DNA of 32,972 bases from a virus. Position numbers and translations under genes: made by a program. Positions within the stretch are counted from its first letter, which is position 1. Each line of letters begins with the position of its first letter. Location: IMG/VR virus record IMGVR_UViG_3300045988_113040, positions 1 through 32,972 of that record. The stretch is one strand, 5' to 3'. Below are positions 2,651 to 32,223 of this stretch, piece by piece. The notes beneath the pieces were generated by a model. The model had not been told where the DNA came from. It saw only the letters and a program-made list of their open reading frames with translations, and did no database searches.

Positions 2651-2945
2651 AGAAGCCCTCTCAAGCCGCATGGAACAAGTCAACAGACTCATAGACAAAG
2701 CCTATGCTGACATGGAGGAATACGCGCGAAGAGCCGAAACGGATGACGACGACCGCGAATACAACATGAGCATGGCCGTCAACGCGCAAAGAAGCTACGT
2801 CAGCTTCATGAACCTGCTCATGACCATGACCAAAAACTTCGACGAAGCGGTCAAAGTGGACTCGCACAAAAGCAAAGCCACCGCAGCCAAAACCTCCAAA
2901 ACCACCCTCCAGAAACTCGTAGCGAAAGAAGCGAAACGCCCATGA
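2634..2945 (+). CDS. Helical acidic/basic protein (103 aa), function unknown (small terminase not excluded)
   Basis: ORF track. Strong AAGGAG sits 5 nt upstream of the ATG. Confidence 0.5.
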   Translation: MAGKTEEALSSRMEQVNRLIDKAYADMEEYARRAETDDDDREYNMSMAVNAQRSYVSFMNLLMTMTKNFDEAVKVDSHKSKATAAKTSKTTLQKLVAKEAKRP

Positions 2946-3808
2946 CACTCACCACAGTAGACGAACAGACCATATCCTTCCCATGGATTGAACTCGTCAA
3001 AAACGCATACGCCATGCGCGCGCGCGTCACCAACTTCAGCGCGGTCGGCAAACGCAGCTTCACCCGCATACTCTCCAAAGCTGTCGGCGGCGTCAACTCC
3101 TACTTCCTCATGCAGGACGGCGACCCGCTCAGCACCGACTACCTCCCATCCGAAGACCTCCACTTGGACAAGGTAGCCGCAGTAGGTTTGGACGGACGCT
3201 GCTACGACGAAAACGCCGAGGAAATCAACGAAAACCTCCGATGCCTCACCCTCAGCCACGCGCCAGTCACCGACCAAGCCGTGCTCTTGGCGCAGCGCGC
3301 CATGGTCATCGAAGGACTCATCTCCCAAAACCTCGAACATCTCATGCTGCCAGAACCCGTCGTGGTCGGCACGTCGCCCGACGTGGTAATCAAAACGGAC
3401 CCGACCAAGAACCCATCCGATTGGACGAAATTCGACGCCAACGATGACCACGACACCATCGTGCGCCCCGAAGTCAAACGACTCAGCCAATGGGATAACG
3501 GACAGCTCAAAACACTCCTGCAAAACACGGCGCTCAGCTTCCAGATGGAAACCGGACTCCCACCGCAGGACGCGCAGATACTCGACACGCTCGGAGCGAC
3601 AACCCAGTCGCTCGTATCCAACAGGGAAAGCTTCGTCAGCCGAATCTACGTCATCAAACAGGATTTGAACGCCGTCTTCGAGCCGATGGGCATCACCCTC
3701 GACTATGAACTCACGTTCCCGCAGACCGCGCAGGACATCGCATCCATCGGCGACGCCTACGGCAAGGGCGCTGACGCCGACATCCTCAAGAAGTATCAGG
3801 TGGTGTGA
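2942..3808 (+). CDS. Packaging/structural protein of unknown family (288 aa). Only candidate for a (very short) portal
   Basis: ORF track. ATGA overlap upstream, and it lies directly upstream of terL. No portal motif could be verified by eye. Confidence 0.5.
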   Translation: MTLTTVDEQTISFPWIELVKNAYAMRARVTNFSAVGKRSFTRILSKAVGGVNSYFLMQDGDPLSTDYLPSEDLHLDKVAAVGLDGRCYDENAEEINENLRCLTLSHAPVTDQAVLLAQRAMVIEGLISQNLEHLMLPEPVVVGTSPDVVIKTDPTKNPSDWTKFDANDDHDTIVRPEVKRLSQWDNGQLKTLLQNTALSFQMETGLPPQDAQILDTLGATTQSLVSNRESFVSRIYVIKQDLNAVFEPMGITLDYELTFPQTAQDIASIGDAYGKGADADILKKYQVV

Positions 3809-3809
3809 C

Positions 3810-5258
3810 ATGCTGGTGAAGAATCCAAACTGGAGGGCGAACGTCCGGCCAACATCCGACGTGGCAATCATGGCCGCCGAGTACGTGAACTGGGGTCGAG
3901 GCAACGCAATCCTCCCGTTTCAGGTCGAATTCCTCAACAACGCCTTCCAACGCAAGAAGGACGGCACTTGGAAATACAAGCGCGTCGCGTTGAACATGCC
4001 GCGTCAGAACGGCAAGACGAAAATCCTCACAGCCCCAATCCTCTACTACCTGTTCGTGCTCGGATTGAACGTGCTCGTCACCGCGCATGAGCAGATTGCG
4101 GCGAACAAAATCATGGAGGATTTGAAGGACGCCATCGATTCGAATCCAGAACTGAAGGCCGAGGTCACGCATTTCAGCACCACCATGGGACGCGAGCGCC
4201 TACAGTTGAGGAACGGCGCGTTCGTCCGGTTCCGTTCCCGCAAGAGCGCTTCCGCTGGCATGGGCGGCACGTTCGATTTGGTCATCTTCGACGAGGCGCA
4301 GGAACTCCGCTCCGAATACGAGGCGATGATTACCAAGACGTTGAAGACGCGCCGCATGGCGATGATAATCTATACTGGCACGCCGTTCCTCCCCTCGTCC
4401 ATCGGAGACACGTTCAACGTGTTCCTCGACAATGCCGAAGAGGATGACATGTCATACGCTGTGCGCTACGGCATCGATGACGAGACGGCGGACATCGAAG
4501 ACGAGCAATTGTGGGCACTCACCAACCCGCTCTACCCGGACGTGATTCCACGCGAAGCGTTCCTCACCGACGTGGCGATAGCCAAACAGGGCGGCGCGGA
4601 CGGACTCATCGACTTCCGCATCCAAGACTTGGGCCTGTGGTGGGCTGACAGCATCCCTCCAGCAATCCCGATGGACTTGTGGGACAGTGCATACTCCGAC
4701 CTCCAACATGACCGCGATACGCTCGTCTACGCGCTCACCTTCGACCCGGCAACCAGCACCCTCGCCCTGTCCGTGGCAGCAAGCACCGAAGAGGTGACGG
4801 TCGGCTCCCAGCATTACGACAAGTGGGCGTACATCATAGGCGAAATCGTAGACGAACGCCCAACCACCGAATCATGGCAGTGGGTGGTTGACGAACTGAA
4901 GACCCGCCCCCGCAAGACCACGCTCATACTGGATGCCGGAGGATTGAACAATCCAATCAGGGACATGCTGCCGCGCGGATTGAACGTCATCCAATTGACC
5001 GGCACCGAATTCCTCGCCTCTCAGCAGGGATTCCTCGACCTGCTGAACGAAGGACGGTTCAAGCATACGAACAACCCCCAGCTGACCGCCGAGGTGCAGA
5101 ACGCGCAGAAGCTCAAATCCGGTTCGGATGACCAGTGGAAGTTCGCGCCGATACGCAAGACCGAAACCACGGCCGGCTTGAAGGGAGTGTCAATCGCCGC
5201 ATGGTATCGCGGCGTCAACCGTCCGAAGGAACGCAAGGTCAGGGAGGTGATAGCGTAA
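3810..5258 (+). CDS. terL: Terminase large subunit
   Basis: ATG 3810 with AGGTGG 6 nt upstream (the track ORF starts earlier at 3705). Walker A is MPRQNGKT and Walker B is FDLVIFDEAQE. A C-terminal nuclease-type region is present. Confidence 0.85.
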   Translation: MLVKNPNWRANVRPTSDVAIMAAEYVNWGRGNAILPFQVEFLNNAFQRKKDGTWKYKRVALNMPRQNGKTKILTAPILYYLFVLGLNVLVTAHEQIAANKIMEDLKDAIDSNPELKAEVTHFSTTMGRERLQLRNGAFVRFRSRKSASAGMGGTFDLVIFDEAQELRSEYEAMITKTLKTRRMAMIIYTGTPFLPSSIGDTFNVFLDNAEEDDMSYAVRYGIDDETADIEDEQLWALTNPLYPDVIPREAFLTDVAIAKQGGADGLIDFRIQDLGLWWADSIPPAIPMDLWDSAYSDLQHDRDTLVYALTFDPATSTLALSVAASTEEVTVGSQHYDKWAYIIGEIVDERPTTESWQWVVDELKTRPRKTTLILDAGGLNNPIRDMLPRGLNVIQLTGTEFLASQQGFLDLLNEGRFKHTNNPQLTAEVQNAQKLKSGSDDQWKFAPIRKTETTAGLKGVSIAAWYRGVNRPKERKVREVIA

Positions 5259-5543
5259 ATGGGCAAGGACACCGGACTATACCACCGCAACCGCGCCATC
5301 CTCCGCGAACGCACCAAACGGACGGGAGCGCCCTGCTACTATTGCGGCGCACCTTTCTACTGGGGCCGCAACGCCGCGCATCCGTTGGCGTTCACCGCAG
5401 ACCATGTGATACCGCGTGCCGCTGGCGGAAGCGACAGGATGGATAATCTTGTGCCCGCCCACATGCAATGCAACAGGGCGAAATCGGACCACATAGCAAG
5501 TCCGGCGACACGCCGAACACGCACCGCCACGAGAAGATGGTAG
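5259..5543 (+). CDS. HNH endonuclease
   Basis: ORF track. Motif is CYYCG...ADHVIPRAAGGSDRMDNLVPAHMQCNRAKSD. Confidence 0.85.
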   Translation: MGKDTGLYHRNRAILRERTKRTGAPCYYCGAPFYWGRNAAHPLAFTADHVIPRAAGGSDRMDNLVPAHMQCNRAKSDHIASPATRRTRTATRRW

Positions 5544-23535: not shown

Positions 23536-23776
23536 CGACGGCCCTCACCCACACTTCGTACCGTTGTGCCATCGTACGGCATGTGCGTGACTCGTATGTC
23601 CAGTCGGGTTTTGTCCAGCTGAGACGGTTTTTTCTGACGCTCCATGCGACGGTGTATGCGGTGTTGGGTGAGCTGTAGGTTTTGTATAGCGCCCATTTGC
23701 CTAAATGTTCTCCCAGCGCCTTGTTGAACCTGTTCGGCTTCCTATAGCCGGTGGGGGGGGTGTCTTGGAATTTCAT
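23519..23776 (-). CDS. Hypothetical protein (85 aa)
   Basis: ORF track. Coupled overlaps on both sides. Confidence 0.55.
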   Translation of the reverse strand: MKFQDTPPTGYRKPNRFNKALGEHLGKWALYKTYSSPNTAYTVAWSVRKNRLSWTKPDWTYESRTCRTMAQRYEVWVRAVDAPEQ

Positions 23777-23973
23777 CGTTCGGTCTCCTTTGGTTTGAAA
23801 TATGCTGGCATGATTGATTTCGGCAGTATCCTGCCTTCGCGTTCCAACCGTTTCGCGTGCGGGAACAGCCAGCCGCGCGACACTCCAAGTGCCTTCGCGG
23901 CTTGGCTGATGTTCAGGCAGGTAGTGAGCGCGTCAATCATGTCTTCGTCACTGTAGTGGATTGGCGCGTTCAC
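23773..23973 (-). CDS. Small helix-turn-helix DNA-binding protein (66 aa)
   Basis: LNISQAAKALGVSRGWLF is an HTH-like segment. Confidence 0.55.
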   Translation of the reverse strand: MNAPIHYSDEDMIDALTTCLNISQAAKALGVSRGWLFPHAKRLEREGRILPKSIMPAYFKPKETER

Positions 23974-25431: not shown

Positions 25432-25932
25432 TCATACCAACCAATACATATTAGATACCATGACGCCCTGTTTGAGCAGAACGGGTTCCCCTTCAAGCCA
25501 TTTCAGGCAACCGTGGGGGGTAATCAGCGCCACATGTCCCTGACCGCTAAAAACACGGTTGTCGTATCCGCTGCCAATCCATGCACGCACCATGTTTTTA
25601 GTGTCGCACTCATATGGGCCGTCTTCAAAATCGTAGGCAATGCCGTTGTGCGCCACGTACCCACGTTCCGTGCGGAACGGGTGACAATTTTCCGGAACGA
25701 CACTACCATGTGTGGCGTATCTGAAATGAATCAGGCACGGTGCGTATTTGAGCCTATCCCAATGACTGAAGATGAAGCCCACCACTTTCAACGGGTCAAC
25801 ATTCTTGAATACCCTCAACCGTTCGCCATCCCACCAACTGACACCGCCCCCATCCGGGTTCGCCTCACTCATGGCTAGGATATCTTCGGGTTCCGGCATT
25901 GCACCGGGTACTGCTGTTACAATGACACACAT
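25432..25932 (-). CDS. Class II (Ntn-type) glutamine amidotransferase-like protein
   Basis: N-terminal Met-Cys nucleophile (MCVIV). LIHFRYATHGSVVPENCHPF matches the H-x-R-x-A-T-x-G...N-x-H-P-F signature. Confidence 0.65.
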   Translation of the reverse strand: MCVIVTAVPGAMPEPEDILAMSEANPDGGGVSWWDGERLRVFKNVDPLKVVGFIFSHWDRLKYAPCLIHFRYATHGSVVPENCHPFRTERGYVAHNGIAYDFEDGPYECDTKNMVRAWIGSGYDNRVFSGQGHVALITPHGCLKWLEGEPVLLKQGVMVSNMYWLV

Positions 25933-25991: not shown

Positions 25992-27602
25992 TCAGTCGTC
26001 AACGCGCGTGGCGGCAAGCCGCTTACGAATATGCGCGTAACGCTCGTTCAGTTCGGGACGCCCGGCACGCTTGTACAGGCGCAACGCGGTACGTTCCAAC
26101 GGTTCCACAGTCGGCTTGCCGTGGGATGCGCGTGCGATACGACTGCGGATGATATTCTCGACTACCCGCATGGCCGCCACGTCATGAAGGCGCAGATATT
26201 CGTAGCCAGCCCAAATGTCCCCACAACTGTGCGCGTGGTATAGGTGGAAAGAGTTGAAAGCGGGGGCCCTGTCGCCCGTCATAATCATGGTTGTAGCTAT
26301 CTGTACGTAGCGGTGCAATGGGCGTAGGTTGCGGGACGGGAGCGCGTAGCAGAGTTCCGGGGCCGACAAACGCTCCTCAACAAGCTTGCGGACACGCTCG
26401 CGGCGTTCCTCATGCCTACGGTATTCAAGCGTGGCGAGAGTCGTGTCGCCATGACTGTAGCGTGCGATACGCGAAGCCTCAACGTTGGCTTTGACGTTAC
26501 GACGGATTTCTGCCGCGCGCTTCTGACGTTCCCGTTCCTCTTCGGCTTTCCGTGCCGCCTTGACGCTACGTGCGGCGGCGAGTCGTTCGTCAAGCGTGCG
26601 AAGGGGTGTATCGGTCACGTTGTCGGCCATGCATGAGGCATACCGTCCAATGAGACTCGCCGATACCGTGCCGCGGGGGTGCTTCTCGAAAAACCGCCAC
26701 ATGGCGCGTATCCACTTGACGGCCGGAACAAGCTTATTAGCGGTACCTTCATACCAACAATCGAACGTGCGCAATTCAATGGTATCCGTATGTTCGTCGT
26801 TGACGGCAGTGTGCTTGCCGGTGTAATCCCCGTGGTTGAGAGAGCACCAATAGTCGTCGCCGAGATGGCGCATGTTGAGTAGGCGGCATTGAGCCGCGTC
26901 CAGCCCACGTAGCGCCCAATACCAACGGCTCGCACATTGGTTTGGCGTGCGCGCCACGTGGATATGACCGCCCGAGTTCTCGCCATATTCACGGATGTCT
27001 TCGACAATTCGTTGCAAGTCGGGCAGCATGGACATGTTAAGGATATTGGTTTGTAGTTCCACCCCGTTCCGCTCTAGCGATTGGTCTTTGTCCCAACCGG
27101 CGATAATGTCAGAGTCTATGACGTTTCCCACGAAGTCATCGGACAGTTCTGACTCAAGTTCAATCTCAACGCCAAACGTGAACTGACTGCCGCCCACAAA
27201 CGTGTAAGGGTAGGTGTATTCGTCGTCCTTGCCCGTTGCAAACATTTCATTGACACGGTGACGTGGGCAGTAGTAAGAGTTTTCCGAACCGCCGCAATAC
27301 TCGCACAGCACAGCGTTACAACTGTAGTTGTCACAGCTATAGTAGTCGCTGCCGTCTAGGTCAATCGGCGTGCCGCATTGCGCGCACCATTCTGACTCGT
27401 AGTCAAAATCGGCGGCGGTATCGACGTGGCGCAGCTCACCGTTATGTAAACTGATATAGAAGTCGCTGCCGATTGCAACGCACTTGGCGGTTCCATCGGG
27501 CCACTTGGAACGGTATGCCTTAAACAGGCGCTGCGCTTGTCCATTACGTTCAATCCACTCGCAATATGGTTCGCCGCCGAGTATCGCTATCCTGTCAGCC
27601 AT
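25992..27602 (-). CDS. Amidoligase_2-like (glutamine-synthetase-type) ligase with an N-terminal Cys-rich zinc module and a long charged helical C-terminal extension
   Basis: FTFGVEIELES...DKDQSLERNGVELQT...ENSGGHIHVAR. Cys cluster is CAQCG...CDNYSCNAVLCEYCG...YYCPRH. GAGGTGA lies upstream of the ATG. Confidence 0.6.
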   Translation of the reverse strand: MADRIAILGGEPYCEWIERNGQAQRLFKAYRSKWPDGTAKCVAIGSDFYISLHNGELRHVDTAADFDYESEWCAQCGTPIDLDGSDYYSCDNYSCNAVLCEYCGGSENSYYCPRHRVNEMFATGKDDEYTYPYTFVGGSQFTFGVEIELESELSDDFVGNVIDSDIIAGWDKDQSLERNGVELQTNILNMSMLPDLQRIVEDIREYGENSGGHIHVARTPNQCASRWYWALRGLDAAQCRLLNMRHLGDDYWCSLNHGDYTGKHTAVNDEHTDTIELRTFDCWYEGTANKLVPAVKWIRAMWRFFEKHPRGTVSASLIGRYASCMADNVTDTPLRTLDERLAAARSVKAARKAEEERERQKRAAEIRRNVKANVEASRIARYSHGDTTLATLEYRRHEERRERVRKLVEERLSAPELCYALPSRNLRPLHRYVQIATTMIMTGDRAPAFNSFHLYHAHSCGDIWAGYEYLRLHDVAAMRVVENIIRSRIARASHGKPTVEPLERTALRLYKRAGRPELNERYAHIRKRLAATRVDD

Positions 27603-27975: not shown

Positions 27976-28347
27976 TCACAGTTCATTGAGTACATACACT
28001 TTGCGCCATGCCGACTCGGCGCCGTCAATCTCACGCCCGTCCTTGATTGCCTTGCGCAGCCACGGCAACGTGACCCCCTTGAACGCGTCGTCGGTCTGCG
28101 CTAGAAACTCCTTGACGTGCCGCAACGTCGTGGCGCTCAAGTACCGCATACCGATTTCAACGCAGTAAACTTCGGTGTCGTCGTCCGTCTTGCCAACCGG
28201 CGTGACTACCGCCGCAATTGTGCCGTACGACTTAAGCACGAGCTTGGTGCCCCCGCTAGCCACGTAGCGTTCCACGAGCGCCTTTCCATAAAAAGACTGA
28301 TGCCCGTCATACAGCGGTTGAAGTTCGAACGTTCCCTGATACTCCAT
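27976..28347 (-). CDS. Hypothetical early protein (123 aa)
   Basis: ATG 28347 with AGGAG 8 nt upstream (the track starts at GTG 28356, inside the SD). Confidence 0.6.
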   Translation of the reverse strand: MEYQGTFELQPLYDGHQSFYGKALVERYVASGGTKLVLKSYGTIAAVVTPVGKTDDDTEVYCVEIGMRYLSATTLRHVKEFLAQTDDAFKGVTLPWLRKAIKDGREIDGAESAWRKVYVLNEL

Positions 28348-28382: not shown

Positions 28383-28547
28383 TCAGGCTATCCAGCTGCT
28401 CGTGATGTCCGCGTAGCCCTTCGGGTCATCGGTCACGGTCAGTGGCGTCAGCTCCCCGTCGCGGTAGGCGTAGACCTCTCCCGCGCCGGTGACGAACACG
28501 CCCTCGCCGTTCTTGATGTATCCTTTGCCGTTCAGTGTCTTGTGCAT
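28383..28547 (-). CDS. Hypothetical early protein (54 aa)
   Basis: ATG 28547 with AAAGGAG upstream. It is the inner part of track ORF 28383..28601. Confidence 0.5.
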   Translation of the reverse strand: MHKTLNGKGYIKNGEGVFVTGAGEVYAYRDGELTPLTVTDDPKGYADITSSWIA

Positions 28548-28572
28548 TTGTTCTCCTTTGGTTGACACTTTT

Positions 28573-28601
28573 AATATACCGCACTTAGCACTATGCGTCA
28601 A
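28573..28601 (-). promoter_or_regulatory. Early leftward promoter P1
   Basis: Minus strand reads TTGACG, 17 nt spacer, TATATT, about 25 nt upstream of the first early ATG. Confidence 0.6.
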
Positions 28602-28647
28602 GTCCGGCGTGTCGTGAGAATGGTTCTCAATCCCAACAGCACAAGTA

Positions 28648-28834
28648 AACCGCGTTAACTAATGAACATGGTCAACACGTTAACCAAGTGAACAGATGAA
28701 CCGCGTCAACACATGAACACGGTTAACATATTAACCACGTCAATGAATGAACCGCGTTAATGAATAAACCGCGTCAACAAGTAAACACGGTTAACACATC
28801 AACGCAGTAAACAGATAAACACAGTTAACAAAAC
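28648..28834. repeat. Eleven tandem 17-bp iterons (12-bp core AACCGCGTYAAC-like plus a 5-nt variable spacer)
   Basis: Units start at 28648, 28665, 28682, 28699, 28716, 28733, 28750, 28767, 28784, 28801 and 28818, an exact 17-bp period. Confidence 0.9.
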
Positions 28835-29214
28835 ACAACAGCAGGGGGAGCACACCCCAACACCCCGGGGGGGGCACCCGAAAACAACACGCGCGGGGCC
28901 TCACCGCACGCCTCGCCAATTGCGCCGACGAGGGCGATGGGACTGGGCACCATCTGAGAGCCATTCTTTGGGGTCTTATACGGTCTTTCACGCCGAACCC
29001 TAGTACTTTTACCTTTCCACGCTGAAAGGCCCTCAGATGCGCCTTTATTCGATTCGGACGCATTCAGCAGCTGCGGCCATGCGACACGTCTCCTTGGATG
29101 GATTATCACTGCTCACTGTAATTCTCTTGGGACAATCCCTTGTTGTCTTCGACCAATTGGACGCCCCCCCACCAACCCACCGCATCACAGGCACCGCGAA
29201 GTTGTGTGCGAAAA

Positions 29215-29364
29215 TCAGGCTTCGACCAGCTCGTACCTGTCTCCAGTCGCTTCATCGAACCTGCCGAGCCTCAATCCATATGCGGCGAGCGGTTCGTTCG
29301 CCAGTTTCTCCCACTCTTCTTCGCCATCGCCGTACACATCCTCGACCACTTCAGCCTCCTGCAT
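29215..29364 (-). CDS. Very acidic small protein (49 aa, about 15 Asp/Glu vs 4 Lys/Arg)
   Basis: MQEAEVVEDVYGDGEEEWEKLANEPLAAYGLRLGRFDEATGDRYELVEA. It is the inner ATG of track ORF 29215..29529. The SD is weak. Confidence 0.35.
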   Translation of the reverse strand: MQEAEVVEDVYGDGEEEWEKLANEPLAAYGLRLGRFDEATGDRYELVEA

Positions 29365-29393
29365 GAGATTGCCGTCGACACGCCGAGGATACG

Positions 29394-29425
29394 AAAAAAA
29401 GGCGGCACGCCTAGAACATGCCGCC
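29394..29425 (-). terminator. Rho-independent terminator/attenuator on the minus strand
   Basis: Minus-strand RNA GGCGGCA-11 nt-UGCCGCC followed by U7 (plus-strand A7 at 29394..29400). Confidence 0.55.
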
Positions 29426-29515
29426 CGTGCATCATTCGCCGGCGCCCCGGCACGGTTGGTGCTCCCGCTAGCAGAGGGTGGTGCGCATCCTTGGAGAGGC
29501 GTTCTGCTTTGTAAA
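29394..29515 (-). ncRNA. Candidate ~120-nt leader or small RNA ending at the terminator
   Basis: TACAAT -10 on the minus strand at 29526..29521 (poor -35). The region is not protein-like in any frame. Confidence 0.2.
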
Positions 29516-29564
29516 TACCGATTGTACACGCTGAGCCTGTGGACAACTCAAGTTAGTGGCAATA

Positions 29565-29624
29565 AATTCTGTGAAAGAATTGTGACGGTTTAGTCGAAGT
29601 TGACACAAAATCAGCATCACAATT
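29565..29624. promoter_or_regulatory. Operator-like AATT(C)TGTGA motifs, two direct and one inverted
   Basis: AATTCTGTGA at 29565..29574, AATTGTGA at 29578..29585, TCACAATT at 29617..29624, all between the divergent promoter candidates. Confidence 0.3.
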
Positions 29625-29626
29625 TC

Positions 29627-29653
29627 TTGACTTTTGGCGTGCCATGGTATATC
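29627..29653 (+). promoter_or_regulatory. Candidate rightward promoter (extended -10 type)
   Basis: TTGACT at 29627..29632, and TGgTATATC at 29645..29653 (spacer only 15 nt). Confidence 0.3.
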
Positions 29654-29693
29654 ACGCGCGCGCACGAGAATGACCCTCCCAAAACCCAATAAA

Positions 29694-29712
29694 TGTAGTA
29701 TGTAGGTGTAGG
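29694..29712 (+). repeat. Three TGTAG(G) repeats, left half of an inverted iteron set
   Basis: TGTAG at 29694, TGTAGG at 29701 and 29707. Confidence 0.8.
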
Positions 29713-29748
29713 TAATAAGGGTATATAGGTTTTTTCCGAAGGACTATT

Positions 29749-29776
29749 TATATATATACGCGCGCGCGCGCGTACA
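29749..29776. repeat. Alternating pyrimidine-purine tract (TA)5(CG)7TACA containing the palindrome TA(CG)7TA
   Basis: Read directly. It is Z-DNA- or cruciform-prone. Confidence 0.85.
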
Positions 29777-29807
29777 GCCATCGGGATGCGAGCGTCAGGT
29801 CGAATCG

Positions 29808-29827
29808 AAAAAAATGCAAAAAAAAAA
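29808..29827 (+). other. A-tracts (A7, TGC, A10)
   Basis: Read directly. An easily melted or bent segment. Confidence 0.85.
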
Positions 29828-29841
29828 TCCCAGAACACCAG

Positions 29842-29864
29842 CCTACATTTCCTACATCCTACAT
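29842..29864 (+). repeat. Three CCTACAT repeats, right half of the inverted iteron set
   Basis: CCTACAT at 29842, 29851 and 29858. An extra TGTAGG lies at 29896..29901. Confidence 0.8.
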
Positions 29865-29967
29865 TTCCTGTGGAAACCAACGATTTCCGACACGCTGTAG
29901 GAGAAGGCTCGTAGCGAGTGTGCTAGGATTGAACCTGTTGAAATCCAGCATACCACAGGAGAAGACC

Positions 29968-32223
29968 ATGAGCCACACATTCCGCAAGCCGCAGGACCCG
30001 CCCACGCTCGACATCAGACCATACCGGAACATCCCCAACGGCCTCGCACGCGAAGTCAACGGCCTCACCATGGCCGCCCAGACCAGCGAATACACGTTCA
30101 CCGACGCACGACTCCAAACCATCGCCATGCCCGTCATGGACGGCACCGGAAAGCCACGCTGGGAAAACGCCTACTACGACGCCTTCTGGTCGCTCAGAAA
30201 CGGCGACCTGCGCCTCGGCGAAGACGGCGACACCATGTACGCCCGAGACACCGACTGGCTCGGCGGCGACATGCCAAACACATGGCATCCAATCAGCAGC
30301 CTGTCCGAAGAATTCGGCTTCCCCACCGGCAGCCACGCAGTCCGCAACCTCGAACCCATGTTCCGCGCCGAAACGCTCAAACTCCCACGCCTCACACGCG
30401 GAATGCTGTTCGGCAGCACCGCCTTCCAAACCCAAGGCAAGCACGCCGTCACGGTCGGAGAAGCCGACGAAAACGGAGCATACCTGTTCGTTGACAACAC
30501 CCCATGGCTGAACGACCGCAGGAAAACCGCCGAACTCGTAGAACAGGCCAACCGGTTCATCGCCCAGCTCACCGCCGACGATGCGAGCCGCGAAAACCTC
30601 CTACGCATGTTCGCAACCCCGTTCCTAGAACCATACAAGCATCTCTTCTACGTGTTCTACGGACACGGCGGCGACGGCAAAAGCTTCCTACTCGGACGCT
30701 TGGGCGACTCCTACCCGGACAAGGCCGGAGGCATCAGCATCAAAGCCCTCAACTCGCCCAGCGTGTTCGAAAGCGGCAATGAAGCATTGAAACTCGACGG
30801 ACGCTATTGGACGTACGACGAGGAAGGCGACATGCTCACCGACAAGGACATGGGCATCATCAAACGCATCGCCACCGGCGACACCATCCACGCCAGAGGC
30901 GTCGGCCGTAACAGCGTCAACGTGCGCTCGCAGGCAACGCTCGTCATCGCAAGCAATCATCCGCTCGCCATCAGCAACGGCGACGCCAACATGCGTCGCC
31001 TCGTGCCCGTCATGTTCGCCGGACGCAAAACCCCGCAGCAGATGCAGCCGCTCGCCGACTTCATCGACCAGTACGGCATGACCCCGTTCATGCTCGCGAG
31101 CGCCATCCTTTGGGCCGACAAGCCGTTGGACGACGACATCCACCGCGACATCAGCTTCAACGACAGCGAACAGGAGCTGGACGAACGCGCCATGTGGATT
31201 GTCAACGAAATCTGTGAAAACGGATACGCCGACACGCGCCTCTGCCCATACATCGGCCACACAAGCGGCGACACGTACAAGATGCTCGGCGTCGGACTGC
31301 GCAGCAAGCGCATCGACGGAAAGGTCTGCTCCGTCCGCGTCGTCATCGACGAAGACCGTTTCGCACCATACCGCGAACGCTACGAACAGGAGCTCGAGGT
31401 AAGCCAACTTCCACTGCTCGAAGACCTGCCCGTACCAGAAATGCAGACCGACATGGAACGGCGCGTCACCGAATACGGCGAAATGGTCGACGTCAAAGCG
31501 CCCGAAGGCTTCAAACTCCACAAGGAGCCAACCGACCCGTCCAATCCGAAAGCCGTCCGCAACTGGAAGAACGGCAAGCAGGAGGATATTGTGGAAATCG
31601 GCCAAGGAGACGTGTACGCCGTCATCCCCCAACCCGGCAGCATCATCATCGACATGGACGCTCCAAAGGACGAGCACAGCCGCCACGGATACGACATCCT
31701 CCGACCAATGCTCGCACCGACCTTCATGGTGCATACGCCGACCCACGGTGGCATCCACGCCTACTACCGGCTTCCAGAAGGCTGGACCGGCAAGCTCAAG
31801 AACACCAACCATGCGGACGGCATTCCGGTCGATGTGAAGGTGGACGGACGCGGATACGTGCTCGGACCCGGTTCCAACATCGACGGCATCGGCTTCTACC
31901 GGCTCGTAGGAGACGAACTCGACGTGCAGGAAGCGCCGCTCGCACTCCTCAACTGGCTGGTCGAACACGGCTACGGCGTAAAACCCATGCCGAAGGCGAC
32001 GCCAGTACCGTCCGGCTCGCCACGCAACGGTCATCCCGACCTCACGTCAGTGCCAGAAGGACGCCGAAACGACACGCTCTACCGGTGGGCTTGGGGACGC
32101 CTCCACAACCACGAGGACAACGAAGCCAACATCCACGACGAACTCAGGCTACGCGGACACGTCAGCGGGCTTGGAGACACAGAAATCGAACGCATCTGGC
32201 AGAGCGTGAAGGAGACGGCATGA
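29968..32223 (+). CDS. Replication protein with an SF3 (P4/D5-type) helicase followed by an AEP primase-polymerase and a PriCT-1-like domain
   Basis: ATG 29968 with AGGAG 6 nt upstream. Walker A is YGHGGDGKS, Walker B is WTYDEEGD, then LVIASNH. AEP motifs are IIIDMDAP, HTPTHGGIHAYY and VDVKVDGRGYVLGPGS. The C-terminus is VPEGRRNDTLYRWAWG. Confidence 0.8.
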   Translation: MSHTFRKPQDPPTLDIRPYRNIPNGLAREVNGLTMAAQTSEYTFTDARLQTIAMPVMDGTGKPRWENAYYDAFWSLRNGDLRLGEDGDTMYARDTDWLGGDMPNTWHPISSLSEEFGFPTGSHAVRNLEPMFRAETLKLPRLTRGMLFGSTAFQTQGKHAVTVGEADENGAYLFVDNTPWLNDRRKTAELVEQANRFIAQLTADDASRENLLRMFATPFLEPYKHLFYVFYGHGGDGKSFLLGRLGDSYPDKAGGISIKALNSPSVFESGNEALKLDGRYWTYDEEGDMLTDKDMGIIKRIATGDTIHARGVGRNSVNVRSQATLVIASNHPLAISNGDANMRRLVPVMFAGRKTPQQMQPLADFIDQYGMTPFMLASAILWADKPLDDDIHRDISFNDSEQELDERAMWIVNEICENGYADTRLCPYIGHTSGDTYKMLGVGLRSKRIDGKVCSVRVVIDEDRFAPYRERYEQELEVSQLPLLEDLPVPEMQTDMERRVTEYGEMVDVKAPEGFKLHKEPTDPSNPKAVRNWKNGKQEDIVEIGQGDVYAVIPQPGSIIIDMDAPKDEHSRHGYDILRPMLAPTFMVHTPTHGGIHAYYRLPEGWTGKLKNTNHADGIPVDVKVDGRGYVLGPGSNIDGIGFYRLVGDELDVQEAPLALLNWLVEHGYGVKPMPKATPVPSGSPRNGHPDLTSVPEGRRNDTLYRWAWGRLHNHEDNEANIHDELRLRGHVSGLGDTEIERIWQSVKETA

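Follow-up and report, generated by a model that had tools for sequence, protein, structure and literature searches.

The 32,972-bp stretch of phage DNA analysed here (the window) carries an array of eleven contiguous 17-bp units upstream of its early promoter. From the comparisons below, this array is probably an accessory control element, not an essential origin or centromere, and its units are probable protein-binding sites. As the best explanation, which we put forward tentatively, the array would be a non-essential multi-site binding platform that, once coated with protein, modulates the flanking early promoter or promoters or buffers a regulator. Tandem arrays of binding sites are already known. 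Literature searches turned up no description of this one, nor anything on DUF8033 or on the cos sites of phages in this group. What sets the array apart from the known classes is the combination of a strict contiguous 17-bp period with palindromic boundaries, natural dispensability and a location that separates the early promoter from the genome end. How virulent Bifidobacterium phages regulate their genes is, to our knowledge, nearly unexplored. The natural range of 0 to about 20 copies provides a clean experimental handle on the control of the first transcription unit, in a phage family that is very common in human gut metagenomes and is tractable because its hosts are cultivable Bifidobacterium strains.

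Genome context of the array

The window represents the complete or near-complete genome, about 33 kb in length, of a Bifidobacterium siphophage from a human gut metagenome. Relatives in GenBank comprised only eight Bifidobacterium siphophages, sewage isolates obtained on B. adolescentis and B. pseudocatenulatum. Homologs of the early protein DUF8033 numbered 828, most of them on contigs of 30-34 kb.

The + strand block begins with the primase-helicase gene, followed by structural, terminase, HNH and lysis genes. The early operon is encoded on the − strand and runs leftward from 28547 to about 19534. Its products are, in this order, a 54-aa protein, DUF8033, a 536-aa protein with a GATase_4 neighbour, ERF, an SSB-like protein, a 66-aa HTH protein (HTH66), VRR-NUC, a YqaJ-like exonuclease, SNF2 and a dCTP deaminase. 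The array is located in the 1.37-kb non-coding region that separates the divergent early and primase blocks (Table 1). The primase-helicase had been listed beside the early proteins in an earlier note on this DNA, which missed that the gene is on the + strand and outside the early operon. The domain order of the encoded protein is unusual, with the SF3 P-loop (DUF5906, residues ~190-380) preceding PrimPol (~540-690).

Table 1 Coordinates of the array and of the features discussed in the text (a dot marks features without strand)
Feature	Position	Strand	Remarks
Terminase (TerL)	3705..5258	+	phrog_9, E 1e-43
HNH endonuclease	5259..5543	+	adjoins TerL
First early gene, 54 aa	28383..28547	−	family restricted to this phage group
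Early promoter P1	28573..28601	−	TTGACG-17-TATATT, 10/12 consensus matches; leftward into early operon
Conserved extended promoter element ACGACACGCCGGACTTGAC	28597..28615	−	takes in the −35
pal, perfect 13-bp palindrome GAGAATGGTTCTC	28616..28628	.	promoter-side array boundary; unique in window
Array, 11 tandem 17-bp units	28648..28834	+	single orientation; consensus AAC-nnn-GTTAAY-Rn-ATG
G-rich hairpin and G8 run	28843..28879	.	between array and genome end; structure kept in all relatives
Imperfect dyad ACGCGCGG-GGCCTCA-CCGCACGC	28889..28911	.	centre 28900; inferred right end after 28899
Highly conserved non-coding block	28900..29060	.	inferred left end; candidate terminase-recognition region
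Primase-helicase, 767 aa	29920..32223	+	SF3-helicase (DUF5906) and PrimPol

The units combine a conserved core with free spacers

All 11 head-to-tail units that had been described before were found, with a start-to-start spacing of exactly 17 bp. Tandem Repeats Finder reported this period together with higher-order periods of 34, 51 and 68. The pattern AACNNNGTNAAY produced 14 matches in the window versus 1.73 expected, a number that none of 100 shuffles reached, and 11 of the 14 matches were the array units, every one on the + strand. The GC content was 39.6% in the array as compared to 56.4% in the genome, and GTTAAC, with five sites in the genome, was confined to the array. Moreover, the + strand of the array was strongly A-rich (80 A vs. 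33 T); the unit is thus directional and not a clean dyad. The previous description of the region as free of ORFs stood insofar as only two mechanical ORFs were present, both unconserved, but these touch the right edge of the array. With regard to coding potential, 17 is not a multiple of 3.

When 195 units from 21 genomes were placed in register, the repeat core suggested earlier, AAC-N3/4-GTYAAC with a partial dyad, turned out to be real and was refined to AAC nnn GTTAAY Rn ATG. Information content was about 0.8-1.8 bits each for positions 1-3 (AAC), 7-11 (GTTAA) and 15-17 (ATG), and just 0.2-0.4 bits for positions 4-6 and 14. Pairwise identity within arrays was 0.82 at core positions versus 0.45 at spacer positions, which implies that the units are old and were randomised wherever they are free to vary. 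As judged from the alignment, this pattern of conservation indicates selection for sequence-specific recognition and not recent slippage. The array could also be a neutral minisatellite, generated by slippage or unequal crossing-over and devoid of function, and its variation in copy number, the higher-order periods and a deletion between flanking direct repeats (see below) are in line with this; the position-specific conservation over 195 diverged units, the family-wide retention at one site and the fixed period, however, render it improbable.

Read as one continuous sequence, the array is a succession of two alternating hexamers, ATGAAC and GTTAAY, spaced 9 and 8 bp apart in turn (spacing counts 237 and 216). 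An equivalent description of the unit is the 15-bp pseudo-dyad ATGAAC-N3-GTTAAY with a linker of 2 bp. Units came in three flavours: type A, to which this window belongs; type B, in which ATGAAC is often replaced by ATGTCA or ATGGAC; and a C-rich type, CCCCCTAATGRAT. The core common to all three was TTAAYRNATG.

Some other identities for the repeats were considered and rejected. A known RNA was dismissed because an Rfam scan of 28400-30000 gave only a chance match to SgrS below threshold. Folding of the array as a single strand yielded z = -0.65 for the + strand and z = -3.0 for the − strand, a one-sided effect that is accounted for by the pseudo-palindromic units and was not counted as a sign of structure. 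Avoidance of GTTAAC as a restriction site was not supported, since it occurred 80 times versus a Markov expectation of 78 in 1.07 Mb of family sequence. The motifs of ECF-sigma, LexA, GlnR, PhoP and parS have spacings that do not match the array.

Retention at one site and natural loss of the array

The earlier note had proposed to look for similar arrays in related phages. Of the 21 relatives whose upstream flank was long enough, 20 had the array in the same place, as did 13 additional IMG/VR contigs, so that nearly all relatives keep it at one site with a period of 17. A pattern scan of IMG/VR showed the array to be confined to this phage family (25 contigs). The 17-bp period was maintained almost throughout, with an extra half-unit step of 7-8 bp in two relatives, and copy number ranged from 3 to about 20 where the array was present. 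No similarity to plasmids in PLSDB was seen, and among species-representative bacterial genomes no Bifidobacterium contained a similar array or motif cluster. Propionibacterium phage PA6 has a similar genome layout without a comparable regular array. A metagenome scan for left-end contigs, for which the pattern was unspecific, returned only 3 relevant loci, none of them informative.

One lineage, to which at least six near-complete contigs of different sample origin belong, has no array. At the junction GAGAACGGTTCCCAATACCA is directly followed by TGGGGAGG, as expected, on the basis of the flanking sequences, from recombination between the direct repeats that border the array in relatives. Five further contigs (30.7-31.0 kb; different ENA samples) and several short ones showed the identical junction; given its occurrence in multiple samples, the lack of the array cannot be put down to faulty assembly. 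The genes for the 54-aa protein, DUF8033 and HTH66 are all retained in this lineage. Taking its full-length contigs as a sign of viability, the array is naturally dispensable.

An origin-like structure next to the primase gene

Dispensability bears directly on a role in replication, which had been considered in the earlier note. The units would then be iterons bound by the SF3-helicase/PrimPol protein encoded 1.1 kb away, and the array would serve as origin or, like crr of phage P4, as an auxiliary replication site in cis. Iteron origins are known from phages and islands that encode SF3 helicase-primases. In length and number the units resemble the 17-22 bp direct repeats in lambda ori, P1 oriR/incA, RK2 oriV, P4 ori/crr and SaPI ori, which are likewise non-coding and near a replication gene, and the array, with its GC content below the genome average, is placed in the only large non-coding region, between early operon and primase-helicase gene. 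Unlike classical iterons, however, the units are contiguous, and a period of 17 bp does not keep them in helical phase. An AT-rich unwinding element next to the array is missing as well; instead, the array is neighboured by a promoter on one side and the G-rich hairpin on the other, and the nearest strongly AT-rich stretch (29690-29755) is about 850 bp off. Primase identity (85-94%) does not track the repeat flavour. Finally, the natural array-less contigs, together with copy numbers from 0 to about 20, argue against a requirement in cis.

A separate structure directly upstream of the primase-helicase gene, conserved and origin-like (29627-29870), appears to be a better candidate for the origin, especially its part from 29650 to 29870. 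There, a (CG)n inverted repeat (29654-29671 and 29756-29773) encloses a 70-bp AT-rich core, and three copies of TGTAGG (29693-29713) face three copies of CCTACA (29842-29863). A + strand promoter with TTGACT and an extended -10 is also part of the whole structure. This structure, the array-less lineage and the copy-number range disfavour the array as an essential origin, and we regard a replication element of any kind as unlikely, although it comes first among the alternatives.

As a separate observation, an inverted repeat (GTGAAAGAATTGTGA and TCACAATTTCTTGAC, 29571-29631) overlaps the -35 of the primase promoter and is possibly a separate operator for the rightward operon. The segment from 29075 to 29520 had no counterpart in any of 20 relatives, which hold unrelated sequence there; it contains a strong terminator on the − strand (29426..29400) and, on the same strand, a short acidic ORF that ends at 29215.

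Promoters and palindromes flanking the array

P1 is a near-consensus promoter, and the previously reported distance of 46 bp between its -35 and the array was confirmed. Relative to the P1 start, the array spans about -82 to -268 and does not overlap the -35 or the -10. The extended -35 element (ACGACACGCCGACTTGAC) also precedes other early genes in the family, in these cases without a palindrome; accordingly, the palindrome belongs to the boundary of the array and not to the promoter as such. The centre of pal is located some 56 bp ahead of the inferred start of transcription. In most relatives a second pal stands on the other side, so that their array is bracketed by GAGAAYGGTTCTC, a feature that was lost in this window. 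GAAC/GTTC half-sites are shared by pal and the units, with a half-site spacing of 1 in pal and 3 in the units. In the GenBank record of BP742P1 (2719-3200), the cassette of palindrome, array and palindrome occurs twice, separated by an N run, which could mean a genuine tandem duplication or an assembly that was not resolved.

Between pal and the array there were 19, 29 or 32 nt, and the phase of the array relative to the promoter was not fixed among relatives, which argues against a direct stereospecific contact with RNA polymerase. Fixed internal phasing at 17 bp with flexible distances to the outside agrees with a binding module that is complete in itself. Type B phages have, behind the far-side pal, the complete promoter a second time in inverted orientation (P2), which drives a gene for a 104-aa protein with its own terminator. 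The type B array is thereby located exactly between two mirror-image divergent promoters, each with a pal at equal offset, and by orientation it is not transcribed from the flanking promoters because both point away from it.

The array lies close to the inferred genome end

Eight contigs, drawn from IMG/VR, ENA and Logan, shared one end nucleotide, behind ACACGCSCGRRGC, equivalent to the step from 28899 to 28900 in the window, and in two of the eight the Illumina adapter AGATCGGAA directly followed the shared end. Together with the HNH endonuclease gene adjacent to TerL, the shared contig end indicates cos-type ends, as far as can be read from the assemblies, and the analysis places the physical genome end. 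Neither this end nor the palindromes beside the array had been noticed in the earlier note. The block from 28900 to 29060 is the most conserved non-coding sequence of the region. A degenerate copy of pal, TGAGAGCCATTCT, was found at 28955-28967, 55 bp beyond the cut, and relatives have pal copies on both sides of the cos region. In addition, one contig ended at the equivalent of 28954 and another started at the equivalent of 28955; this coincidence may reflect a terminal offset of ~55 bp.

With only 65 bp between array and inferred end in this window, a function at the genome end has to be weighed. The array would then belong to the DNA that is packaged last and injected first, and would help to terminate packaging, hold the DNA end within connector or tail, or shield the incoming end from host exonuclease. 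The gene order of TerL and HNH endonuclease points to cos-type packaging, the pal copies flank the cos region, and short repeated sites at most a few hundred bp from the mature end are known from the R sites of lambda cosB and from phage T7, which has repeat arrays beside its terminal repeats. Yet in type B the array is about 500 bp away from the end because an extra promoter and gene intervene; it remained with the promoters, while a pal-like sequence remained beside the genome end. Unlike the lambda and T7 repeats, the array therefore has no conserved distance to the end, and the array-less lineage, which keeps the cos block and is viable to judge from its full-length contigs, does not seem to need it for packaging. 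The variable distance to the cut and the dispensability disfavour a cosB-like site, and a genome-end function in general is unlikely, in our estimate behind both a replication element and the capture of a host protein considered below.

Dozens of IMG/VR entries of the family start at or just after the primase stop codon or at the next gene start. A reading of these starts as another physical end or as part of a long terminal repeat was rejected since they coincide with gene boundaries, and they are most simply explained by database trimming. The trimmed entries are without the left ~3.3 kb, which comprise the cos block, the origin-like region and the primase gene.

Search for proteins that could bind the array

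The AF2 model of the 54-aa protein (pLDDT 71) consisted of a four-strand beta meander and one helix and had no fold match; that of DUF8033 (pLDDT 86) showed a five-strand sheet with two helices and a weak GNAT-like similarity. A PDB fold search with both models gave no match reaching E 0.001. The products of 28383..28547 and 27976..28347, named as possible binders in the earlier note, hence lost ground, because their predicted structures lack a DNA-binding fold. Pfam scans of 45 further ORFs revealed a DNA-binding domain solely in HTH66 (23773..23973). This protein is 88-91% identical between type A and type B phages, and checks for co-variation with the repeat type and for co-loss with the array gave no signal; it is a candidate binder of the invariant palindrome. 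Altogether, no binder of the array emerged among the phage proteins from Pfam scans, structure models, or the co-variation and co-loss checks of HTH66.

The same searches bear on a plasmid-type centromere, another suggestion of the earlier note, which would serve an episomal carrier state. Like parC/ParR of R1 and pSK41 and like tubC/TubR, the array is a tandem repeat directly upstream of an operon promoter, and its period is out of helical phase. In contrast to these systems, a partition NTPase and an adaptor are missing: Pfam scans of 60+ ORFs found no ParA, ParM, TubZ or ParB domain, in agreement with the earlier statement that no ParA/ParB-like gene is present, and the proteins encoded next to the array are, according to the models, neither RHH nor winged-helix proteins. 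The phage is virulent-looking and has cos ends, its relatives are sewage isolates whose GenBank records have no annotated integrase or partition gene, and PLSDB and the species-representative bacterial assemblies yielded no similar plasmid or array, respectively. For practical purposes a centromere is excluded, and we consider it very improbable.

Outside the phage family, two actinomycete chromosomes contained ATGAAC-N3-GTTAAC twice at 17-bp spacing between genes for a TetR regulator and an MMPL transporter (1393-1440 and 346-400, respectively). These sites imply that a dimeric HTH protein can use such a motif. Unlike the phage array, however, this operator is chromosomal, has two copies only and is accompanied by the gene for its TetR regulator. 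No TetR-like gene was found in the phage, which leaves room for a host protein as the binder. An Acidimicrobiales genome contained four tandem 17-bp copies of ATGAACACGGTCAACTG (4929-4995), which duplicate the start of a response-regulator gene.

If a host protein were the binder, the array could act as a decoy or sink for it, the target being a regulator or a defence sensor. An array useful in some hosts only would be gained, expanded and lost quickly, and the rapid turnover, the higher-order repeats and the lineage-specific motif flavours correspond to this; besides, one lineage lost the array without losing any candidate phage gene, and the phage candidates examined did not include a binder. 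On the other hand, the motif cluster has no parallel in any Bifidobacterium of the species-representative collection, no host protein is implicated, and the argument works by exclusion. We rate a sink of this kind as unlikely, next in order after the replication element. In a related version, to which we assign a lower probability than to any of the readings named so far except the minisatellite and the centromere, the array would be a decoy or cap, made up of high-affinity sites in tandem, on the DNA that enters the cell first: it would capture a DNA-binding protein of the host (defence sensor, nuclease or silencer) or a protein delivered with the virion, thereby protect or license the genome end and the early promoter, and evolve in copy number and motif flavour through an arms race between host and phage. 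Should the binder prove to be a host protein, the array would exemplify a decoy at the DNA level.

A model for the function of the array

The earlier claim of a high-density binding site stands in one part: the array is a real and conserved DNA element whose core is kept and whose spacers are free, as predicted, but the phage candidates examined provided no binder. Of the roles listed at that time, operator and decoy are live options. The reading that we favour, tentatively as stated above, is the platform modulating the early promoter or buffering a regulator. Each 17-bp unit would offer the conserved core TTAAYRNATG, in most lineages together with AAC, which amounts to the 15-bp pseudo-dyad. 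A sequence-specific DNA-binding protein, probably as one dimer per unit, would coat the units side by side, and the flanking palindromes would bound or nucleate the coating. The resulting nucleoprotein filament might tune or shut off P1 and, where present, the mirror promoter P2; alternatively, the array might buffer the free concentration of the regulator. What we infer here comprises the binding of protein, the kind of binder, the cooperative coating and the effect on transcription.

Several features support the platform, namely that the array stays with the promoters, that type B phages have mirror promoters and that transcription does not cross the array. Its dispensability fits the site of an accessory regulator. 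The platform is weakened by the candidate phage proteins, which are not DNA-binder-like, and by the position of the array upstream of the core promoter.

The closest parallels are multi-site operators such as the omega heptads of pSM19035, the MetJ metboxes, the ParG boxes and the EthR multimer sites. As in these, the units are short and contiguous, with the core kept and the spacers free, a sub-period of 8-9 bp and a promoter nearby, and cooperative coating would be expected. Unlike these operators, the array is upstream of both -35 and -10, is dispensable and can reach about 20 units, and no RHH protein or other cognate regulator was found, the sole HTH protein being without co-variation or co-loss. 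Its sites begin 46 bp from the -35, with only pal near the promoter (at about -56), and in type B it has a promoter on either side.

Further features of the phage genome

The 536-aa early protein (25992-27602, − strand) had no match in Pfam or PHROG. Its sequence contains motifs that may be amidoligase-like, and the neighbouring gene (25432-25932, − strand) encodes a class-II glutamine amidotransferase-like protein (GATase_4). This gene pair is missing in the smaller family members of 29.6-30.8 kb.

The tetranucleotide GATC does not occur in the window, versus about 117 sites expected in 32,972 bp, and in 1.07 Mb of family sequence it was depleted ~30-fold (130 vs. 4268 expected). GTCGAC was depleted in the same sequences, too (100 vs. 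744). Judged by these counts, the depletion of both sites looks like restriction avoidance.
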